Shown in pieces: positions 52,873-53,433 of a stretch of DNA of 63,789 nucleotides. Both the position numbers and the translations under genes were made by a program. Under the pieces are notes generated by a model that did no database searches, was not told the origin of the DNA, and saw nothing but the letters and a program-made list of their open reading frames with translations. This stretch comes from an uncultured Pseudanabaenaceae cyanobacterium (lineage in GTDB: Bacteria > Cyanobacteriota > Cyanobacteriia > PCC-9006 > JAAUQQ01), in NCBI GenBank assembly GCA_938021205.1, contig CALIGI010000048.1:1-63789 (forward strand), in the 5' to 3' direction. Each line of letters begins with the position of its first letter. Position 1 is the first letter of the stretch.

Positions 52873-53433
52873 CTAGCGAACTCTGACCTCGTAGGAGGCG
52901 ACAATATTGCGCTGGGGGGGGAGGTCGCCCTGGGCTTCCCAGCGTAAGTGGGTATATAGCTCCGCTGGGGCTGGTGTTTCTATGAGGTTGCCATCGGCTT
53001 GCTTGACCTGGATCATGGGCCGAACGCTGAAGTGCTTGCCGCCGTCGATGCTGTAGCTCAGTAGGAGGCCTGCGTTACTGGCAGCAGAGTTGGGCACGTA
53101 GCTCATTTGGGCCGGGACGGGTTGGTTGAGCACTAAGTTACGAGCCGCTGCATCGCCAATATTGCGACTCGTAATGCTGTAGCGCAGGACGTCGCCGGGC
53201 TGGACGACGGCCTGACTGCCTAGGTCCTTCCAGACCACTTTCGTCTGGCCGATCTGGTCGTGCTCAACCTCTTTCTTGTAGGCCGCGAGGTTGAGTTTGA
53301 CCTCGGGTTGGGTCAGCTTCTTGACCAGGTTGGATCCGGCTTTGAGGAAGTTGGCTTGGGCCGGTGTGTTGTGGAGAAGGGGAACTGCGGTGAAGGCGGC
53401 GATCGCGCTCAATCCGATGAGTAGACGTTTCAT
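52873..53433 (-). CDS. Small secreted single DUF11-like domain protein, 186 aa (candidate chaperone)
   Basis: Signal peptide ending PAQA; VQPGDVLRYSITSRNIG..NLVLNQPVPAQMSYV..YSIDGG..LRW..ASYEVRVR; AGGAG RBS. Confidence 0.85.
   Translation of the reverse strand: MKRLLIGLSAIAAFTAVPLLHNTPAQANFLKAGSNLVKKLTQPEVKLNLAAYKKEVEHDQIGQTKVVWKDLGSQAVVQPGDVLRYSITSRNIGDAAARNLVLNQPVPAQMSYVPNSAASNAGLLLSYSIDGGKHFSVRPMIQVKQADGNLIETPAPAELYTHLRWEAQGDLPPQRNIVASYEVRVR

Follow-up and report, generated by a model that had tools for sequence, protein, structure and literature searches.

A contig of 63,789 nucleotides from an uncultured Pseudanabaenaceae cyanobacterium (CALIGI010000048.1 of assembly GCA_938021205.1, positions 1 to 63,789 of the forward strand; hereafter the window) encodes a small secreted protein, P0001, at 52873..53433 (186 amino acids, stop codon included; here and below, genes and features lie on the minus strand unless stated otherwise). 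The best reading of this small protein, put forward tentatively, is a reversible, chaperone-like assembly factor that caps the donor hairpins of the subunits of a fibre. Its gene follows that of an acidic protein of 847 amino acids (P0002, 53541..56084), which is proposed to be the shaft subunit and carries a DUF7925 domain (PF25546, 206 bits) at residues 255-443. The function suggested for the small protein comes from models and comparative genomics alone; it draws on a docking domain with glutamine in place of the catalytic acid, on a model of the complex with the shaft hairpin and on the linkage to the shaft gene.

The open reading frame (ORF) 52873-53433 is a genuine gene, present in the ORF list with its translation. 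The product begins with a Sec-type signal peptide (residues 1-27; 53353..53433), recognised by eye from the MKR start, a hydrophobic core and AQA before N28; in alignments of homologs, conservation is at least 90% for P24 and complete for A27, the end of the signal peptide. By its sequence, P0001 is a Sec-type secreted protein with one DUF11/CLIPPER-like immunoglobulin (Ig) domain, of the acceptor type and delimited at residues 40-186 (52876..53316) by a structural model, a match to the CLIPPER domain 9ifr_A and HHalign. The match to Pfam DUF11 (PF01345) is a bare pass, 25.2 bits against a cut-off of 24.6, and spans residues 73-132 and profile positions 9-63 of 114; TIGR01451 is clearer (36.0 against a cut-off of 24), and DUF11 and DUF7927 are the only Pfam families found at an expectation value (E) of 0.1 or below. 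The AlphaFold 2 (AF2) model, built from a 32-sequence alignment, is a single-domain, ten-strand beta-sandwich with a mean predicted local distance difference test score (pLDDT) of 81.9; in blocks of ten residues, the means are at least 89 from residue 41 on, and residues 1-39 lie below 50. Among 48,161 chains compared by VIA-align, 9ifr_A came second (Z 8.3, root-mean-square deviation 1.9 Å over 91 residues), a rank level with that of unrelated Ig folds; Z values of 7-8 are common for Ig folds according to the aligner, and many Gram-positive CnaA-type pilin domains were found at Z 6-8. Foldseek returned no match in the PDB at E ≤ 0.001, and the search of the sequence against solved structures gave a chance cytochrome match alone (E 0.4). 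P0001 is regarded as a genuine domain of the DUF11 type, for which the structural support is modest: it scores above the DUF11/CLIPPER profile cut-off and, modestly, shows the CnaA-like Ig beta-sandwich fold, but of the Lys-Asp-Asn triad of DUF11/CLIPPER it has only the Lys, with Gln at the Asp position and the Asn strand absent. Because both the Asn-bearing strands and the Asp appear to be missing, no intramolecular bond would be possible in it.

That the chain is truncated before the last two DUF11 strands is likely, not proven, from the alignments. The reference is the intact DUF11 domain of a 562-amino-acid protein encoded downstream (P0003, 51042..52730), in which Lys287, Asp321 and Asn387 are each conserved in 72/72 homologs. 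The high-confidence zone of the HHalign comparison with this domain is residues 66-119 of P0001 (95.4%); in the low-stringency extension beyond it, the last residue of P0001 falls at column 100 of 128, and the part that is absent holds the bond-forming Asn387. The C-termini of three larger proteins of the window, P0002, an 881-amino-acid protein (P0005, 44058..46703) and its 1177-amino-acid paralog (P0193, 39324..42857), finish at the strand equivalent to the end of P0001, and all four share one acceptor architecture, consisting of a Lys strand, a Trp strand, a PGD motif and the common chain end. In P0002 this acceptor-type domain covers residues ~695-847 (53544..54002).

What distinguishes the small protein within this set is Gln104 (codon CAA, 53122..53124, confirmed by a codon check), which stands at the position of the catalytic Asp or Glu. 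According to the accessible part of a survey of isopeptide domains (PMC12617251), in which DUF11 was renamed CLIPPER and the structure 9IFR was solved, the intramolecular bond joins Lys715 to Asn806 and Asp748 is catalytic, which makes the Asp of the 'D-x-L-P' motif the catalyst rather than a bond partner; the same source describes certain DUF11 domains without the triad. In HHalign comparisons, Gln104 lies opposite Asp321 of the intact domain of the 562-amino-acid protein (probability 95.4%), Asp773 of the 881-amino-acid protein (92.8%) and Glu768 of the 847-amino-acid protein (88.1%). It is Gln in 32/32 aligned homologs and in 81/81 sequences of the larger set used for residue counts below, which comprises the window protein and those of 80 genome loci retrieved via the small protein. 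An acid at position 104 was thus found in 0/81 members of the small-protein family, against Glu in 69/70 and Asp in 1/70 of the 847-amino-acid type, Asp in 17/17 of the 881-amino-acid type and Asp in 72/72 of the 562-amino-acid type. In three distant small proteins the aligned position holds Gly, and the next residue is Asn in one of them and Asp in two. As judged from these sequences, the Gln at the catalytic site is far from chance and is the one systematic difference from the reactive acceptors. A sequence-only reading of this DNA had described the small protein as a single DUF11-like domain that lacks the final hairpin and has Gln104 where other repeats have Asp; the profile matches, the model and the 9ifr_A match bear out the first point, the chain end at column 100 of 128 agrees with the second within the low-stringency part of the alignment, and the third holds throughout the family, so that the consistent loss of the acid which that reading expected among homologs is indeed found.

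The same reading had supposed that the reactive Lys was lost as well, and here the homologs contradict it. Lys53 (codon AAG, 53275..53277, confirmed by a codon check), the residue that corresponds to the acceptor Lys, is Lys in 78/81 homologs and lies opposite Lys706 of the 847-amino-acid protein (70/70) and Lys679 of the 881-amino-acid type (16/17) in HHalign, and both Leu49 and Lys53 are kept in 3/3 distant forms. The acceptor Lys is therefore judged, from the alignments, to be retained as K53, in a site of ambiguous geometry. Leu49 was considered as a replaced Lys, a possibility raised by contacts in the complex model described below and by an ungapped match to the strand of the 881-amino-acid protein. 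It was rejected because the reactive domain of the shaft likewise carries Leu or Met at the fourth position ahead of its Lys: this position is Leu in 63/81 and Met in 18/81 of the small family, and Leu in 34, Met in 23, Val in 8 and Ile in 5 of 70 shaft homologs. A third point, the basic charge of the small protein next to an acidic 847-amino-acid subunit, is correct for the window, where the isoelectric point (pI) of the mature small protein is 9.36 and that of P0002 is ~4, the latter being the floor of the calculation routine. It is not a conserved trait and was rejected as such, since only 31/81 homolog domains are basic (pI >7.5) and 50/81 have a pI <6.5; the charge complementarity is a local feature.

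Another conserved part of P0001 is the run of residues 127-162 (~52948-53055), in which Ser128, Ile129, Asp130, Gly132, Pro139, Gly148, Pro154-Ala155-Pro156 and Tyr160 are invariant and His162 is mostly kept. This run lies outside the modelled hairpin interface and is without a counterpart in ordinary DUF11 domains, and it could be either an additional functional surface or a structural insertion.

The partner proposed for the docking site is the N-terminal donor hairpin of the mature shaft subunit (residues 36-76; 55857..55979). In 70 shaft homologs, Asn47, Tyr53, Ser67 and Asn68 are invariant (70/70 each) and Asp55 is present in 66/70. The hairpin can be aligned with the two final strands of the complete DUF11 domain in the 881-amino-acid protein (E 2.7e-4, probability 42%), with Asn47 falling on the bond-forming Asn, which gives modest support to its role as the missing piece. 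The N-terminus of the 562-amino-acid protein is homologous to the shaft hairpin (94.4% in profile-profile comparison). When the two hairpin and two C-terminal acceptor segments were searched on their own, no relevant Pfam family appeared at E ≤ 10, and profile-profile comparison was therefore needed for these pieces. In the window, donor hairpins are thus found in two proteins (847 and 562 amino acids) and truncated acceptors in four (847, 881 and 1177 amino acids and the small protein), and the existence of unpaired donors and unpaired acceptors speaks for joining in trans.

A model of the complex was made from shaft residues 36-90 and small-protein residues 40-186, both entered as alignments. 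It scored 0.81, compared with 0.00-0.02 for the controls (best of three, 0.02); this mark was reached by 58/80 solved complexes and by 2/110 mismatched pairs, a calibration that is rough here because custom alignments were used. Three runs agreed on at least 97% of the contacts, with a pLDDT of at least 89 for the partner. In the model, hairpin residues 45-57 run antiparallel to small-protein residues 95-105, Gln104 among them, and hairpin residues 65-75 run parallel to residues 45-51. The model supports, rather than demonstrates, binding of the shaft hairpin by the small protein at its open edges; the pass may, however, reflect just the likeness of the pair to one intact DUF11 domain.

The genomic distribution points to the same partner. 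A word-indexed search gave 38 full-length relatives of the small protein, 102-326 amino acids long, of which every source-named one is cyanobacterial, and among 538 pattern-matched stretches in a genome collection, 419 were confirmed by tblastn to contain a relative. The small gene lies directly after the 847-amino-acid gene in the window, as the sequence-only reading had stated (gap of 107 nt), and an 847-type gene is its upstream neighbour in 79/80 loci. The order of the 847-amino-acid gene, the small gene, the 562-amino-acid gene and a gene for a 1329-amino-acid barrel protein is intact in 72/80 cyanobacterial loci; of the 8 exceptions, 7 are cut by contig ends, and one (L080) is without the last two genes despite a flank of 10 kb. 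In a sample of 201 genomes drawn evenly from the phylum, whose related members are not independent and which therefore serves as description rather than as a statistic, a small-protein match (E ≤ 1e-15) was present in 23 genomes and DUF7925 in 21, all of them among those 23. A distance of ~1.9 kb separates the DUF7925 gene from the small gene, and in one genome both genes are present twice. The two small-protein genomes without DUF7925 belong to another class of the phylum, in which a relative of 154-157 amino acids stands directly before a protein of 991-1116 amino acids with the same hairpin motif and a C-terminal acceptor-type end. The small gene is strictly coupled to the shaft gene. Fused forms of the small protein were found in 0/2377 longer candidates at E ≤ 1e-10, which is weak evidence. 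The cluster occurs in about one-tenth of the sampled cyanobacterial genomes (21/201), a sample weighted heavily by one cluster-free family.

In the distant loci L083 (9177-13212), L084 (9205-17427) and L085 (8991-12575), the small gene comes first, and the shaft, which has no DUF7925, retains both hairpin and acceptor end; the shaft of L084 is followed by a 1418-amino-acid gene with a hairpin-like N-terminus.

In the scheme proposed for these proteins, the acceptor would be a DUF11/CLIPPER Ig fold minus its last two strands, and the N-terminal hairpin of the shaft would bring those strands together with the Asn. The hairpin of one subunit would complete the acceptor of the next, and a Lys-Asn isopeptide bond, catalysed by the Glu or Asp of the acceptor, would lock the joined subunits. 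By analogy with chaperone-usher systems, the 881- and 1177-amino-acid proteins might serve as tips, the 847-amino-acid protein as the shaft and the 562-amino-acid protein as a terminator. The small protein, exported by the Sec pathway, would be a stand-alone copy of the C-terminal docking domain of the subunits, with the same docking site and Lys but with Gln for the acid, so that it would bind the hairpin and leave it unlocked. It could thereby cap, in the periplasm, hairpins that are still free on subunits just exported, and stop premature covalent polymerisation until the hairpin is handed to a reactive acceptor at the outer-membrane barrel. That the fibre polymerises by hairpin insertion with bonds between molecules, that the small protein binds reversibly and that it acts at this place and time are points that we infer.

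Three considerations favour a reversible assembly factor: the window already encodes two acceptor-only proteins of the reactive type, the non-reactive state of the small protein never varies, and the shaft gene is a constant companion. The 881- and 1177-amino-acid proteins keep Lys and Asp and would already provide a covalent tip, and an invariantly non-reactive copy beside such reactive tips makes it seem that reversibility matters. As for the chemistry, the accessible text of a preprint on SpyCatcher reports that bond formation was lost when the catalytic Glu was changed to Gln (E77Q; bioRxiv 10.1101/087593), and Gln104 in place of the acid, read with this precedent, suggests a docking domain that binds but cannot lock. 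The suggestion of a non-reactive acceptor and candidate chaperone in the sequence-only reading thus finds partial support in silico: the open hairpin site of the complex model, the absent acid and the linkage to the shaft speak for it, while the supposed loss of Lys and the charge pairing have fallen away. It is possible, but doubtful, that the cluster represents an undescribed class of cyanobacterial outer-membrane-exported fibres, a natural SpyTag/SpyCatcher-like chain with the small protein as a 'dead catcher' chaperone and with covalent bonding paying for the hairpin exchange. In a bolder variant, Lys53, which is retained, and Gln104, which is invariant, might themselves undergo a reaction.

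Several points weigh against the assembly-factor reading. Known pilus chaperones donate a strand to stabilise an incomplete fold, and here the incomplete acceptors would stay uncapped. The bonding between molecules in the fibre is itself something we infer. The contact list of the complex model is without Lys53, and Leu49 contacts both Asn residues of the hairpin. A pure decoy has no need of strong Lys53 conservation, and a bond could still form; in addition, Asp adjoins the aligned 104 site in 2/3 distant forms (Gly-Asp). As to the missing strands, the truncation alignment is of low stringency past residue 119, and the 9ifr_A match, which covers residues 18-109 of 123 of that chain, is by itself no proof that they are missing.

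The main rival explains the same data almost equally well, and is nevertheless held to be unlikely. According to it, the small protein is a non-covalent terminal cap or minor subunit that sits on the free donor hairpin at the far end of a fibre lacking an adhesin, and is possibly a starter of assembly. Such a cap would be acceptor-only, as are the 881- and 1177-amino-acid proteins, the same complex model would fit it, and a default cap could help since the 881-amino-acid type was located inside the flanks of only 28/80 loci. One cap per fibre, however, fails to explain why the small gene adjoins the shaft gene so tightly in every lineage, and there is no evident reason for a cap to be non-reactive, whereas the Gln is found in 81/81.

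Considerably less probable is a covalent role as a small tip pilin, in which Lys53 would bond to the hairpin Asn, slowly or via another proton-transfer residue, and the small protein would become a permanent part of the fibre. The conservation of Lys53 (78/81 homologs and 3/3 distant forms) and its alignment with the reactive Lys706 speak for this role, as do the Asp beside the aligned site in 2/3 distant forms and the hairpin Asp55 in 66/70 shaft homologs. Against these stand the acid itself, kept in all the reactive-type domains examined (69/70 plus one Asp, 17/17 and 72/72) and in 0/81 of the small family, the loss of bonding upon the Glu-to-Gln change as reported in the accessible text on SpyCatcher (10.1101/087593), and the position of Lys53 outside the modelled contact list.

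Slightly less probable again is an adaptor that would use the hairpin site and a second conserved surface to deliver subunits to the 1329-amino-acid barrel or keep them there, or a regulator of fibre length that would compete with the reactive acceptors. Invariant residues outside the modelled interface (Ser128-Gly132, Pro139, Gly148, Pro154-Pro156 and Tyr160) hint at a second contact, and the barrel gene belongs to the same conserved cluster (72/80 loci), but these residues may be mere core or turn positions. Finally, an ordinary secreted single-domain DUF11 protein, for example one that binds surface or matrix, merely sharing the operon, with the modelled binding as a beta-edge artefact, is the least probable of the alternatives, since the Pfam score scarcely over threshold, the fold matches at the common Ig level and the ability of complex models to pass by likeness to intact domains are outweighed by perfect co-occurrence with the shaft in the sample (21/21), controls at 0.00-0.02, a Gln that is invariant at a site relevant solely to bond chemistry and a C-terminal truncation common to the acceptor domains of the subunits. 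The small protein is thus still best taken, tentatively, as a reversible assembly factor.

The 562-amino-acid protein has an N-terminal donor hairpin, the intact DUF11 domain and an SdrD_B-like domain, and has no acceptor domain. Relatives of 812-842 amino acids (L003, 10780-13218; L035, 10864-13392) keep the hairpin motif, which is then followed by a probably helical insertion of ~300 residues. The 881-amino-acid protein combines an intact DUF11 domain with an acceptor domain at its C-terminus (Lys679, Asp773), and no donor-hairpin motif was seen in it. Its 1177-amino-acid paralog likewise has DUF11 and a C-terminal acceptor domain of the 881-amino-acid kind (by Pfam and translation), and residues ~953-1177 match downstream genes in most of the best 12 of 20 matching loci. 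This C-terminal module, the sole part common to the downstream genes of other loci, fits variable tips on a common docking module.

The 1329-amino-acid protein (P0004, 47053..51042) is predicted to begin with one or more Ig-like domains and to continue as a very large beta-barrel. An Invasin_D3-like Pfam match lies under its cut-off; no Pfam or NCBIfam family was found over cut-off, no usher family (PF00577) at E ≤ 0.1, and no match to the sequence among solved structures. The AF2 model of residues 395-1295 (pLDDT 74) has more than 40 strands, nearly all long and antiparallel, and Foldseek matched it to LptD, SlpA, MtrB, SprA and FimD at E 3e-9 to 1e-5, with a template modelling (TM) score of at most 0.31 in either normalisation. 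The modelled barrel is far larger than the 24-strand usher barrel, and FimD is one of many low-TM barrel matches. On the model, P0004 is a large outer-membrane-type barrel with no assignable family. Leads in the Protein Atlas include small DUF11 proteins together with ~850-amino-acid barrel proteins in Pseudomonadota and Acidobacteriota.

Just past the small gene, ~25 nt after its stop codon, lies a perfect 42-nt palindrome (52807..52848) with an 18-bp stem, which contains the cyanobacterial GCGATCGC motif; the surrounding 150 nt (52731-52880) fold with -53 kcal/mol (z -4.48). Structured RNA (z < -3 against mononucleotide shuffles) occurs after the small gene in 44/80 loci and in the gap between shaft and small gene in 29/75 loci. 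The stem-loop was considered as the mark of a two-gene unit and rejected, since similar structure is common to both intergenic regions. A terminator scan of 52600-56500 gave 4 sites against 3.4 expected, none of them at gene ends. Upstream of the shaft gene, a 137-amino-acid ORF (56978-57391) showed no Pfam family and no match in the 80 related loci, and is probably not a gene. Directly downstream of the cluster, 37498-39117 encodes a protein with DUF4388 and a response-regulator receiver domain, and a group-1/2-type sigma-70 factor is encoded nearby on the plus strand (34158-35426).

If the proposal is true, it describes a fibre-assembly scheme that is new for outer-membrane bacteria, with covalent joining without sortase and with a chaperone that acts as a docking decoy instead of donating a strand. 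It would also mean that nature provides co-evolved pairs of reactive and non-reactive catchers for one tag, which would be useful in protein-ligation technology. A function is thereby proposed for the gene cluster, and cyanobacterial surface fibres beyond type IV pili are opened to experiment. In the literature searched, neither the operon nor a small partner protein was described, nor were hairpins at the termini of DUF7925 proteins, and DUF7925 itself appeared only in the isopeptide survey of 2025 (PMC12617251). In the accessible part of that survey, DUF7925 (representative Q8YS00 of Nostoc) is treated as an intramolecular-bond domain, predicted to hold a Lys-Asp-Asn bond, and that part is silent on neighbours in the operon, on hairpins at the termini and on any small partner protein.

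Four known systems bear comparison with the small protein. First, PapD and FimC are likewise small secreted Ig-fold proteins whose genes share a fibre operon with that of an outer-membrane barrel, and the capping proposed here would resemble theirs in being reversible until delivery. However, PapD donates a strand into the groove of the subunit, whereas the small protein, according to the model, would offer the groove and take the hairpin; moreover, it has one domain, not the two of PapD (PF00345/PF02753), and has no PapD match at E ≤ 0.1, so that the resemblance can be a functional analogy only. Second, the E77Q form of SpyCatcher reportedly retains non-covalent binding of its tag. As far as the accessible text goes, it is the closest engineered analogue, a split isopeptide domain in which the Lys is kept and the catalytic acid is changed to Gln (10.1101/087593), but it is an engineered CnaB fold that takes a single-strand tag, whereas the small protein is natural, CnaA-like in its DUF11 fold and would take a two-strand hairpin. 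Third, the CLIPPER domain 9IFR has its sequence motif and fold in common with the small protein, which differs in being a stand-alone protein rather than a stalk repeat, in being without the Asn-bearing last strands and in having Gln for Asp. Fourth, archaeal threads may be regarded, in principle and with no homology claimed, as the closest natural analogue: the accessible part of their description (PMC9715654) gives the thread subunit Saci_0406 an N-terminal donor and an inter-subunit isopeptide bond and proposes a separate small cap, Saci_0405, although these threads use a single donor strand and an unusual bond from Asn to the N-terminus, and are built without an outer membrane or a barrel.

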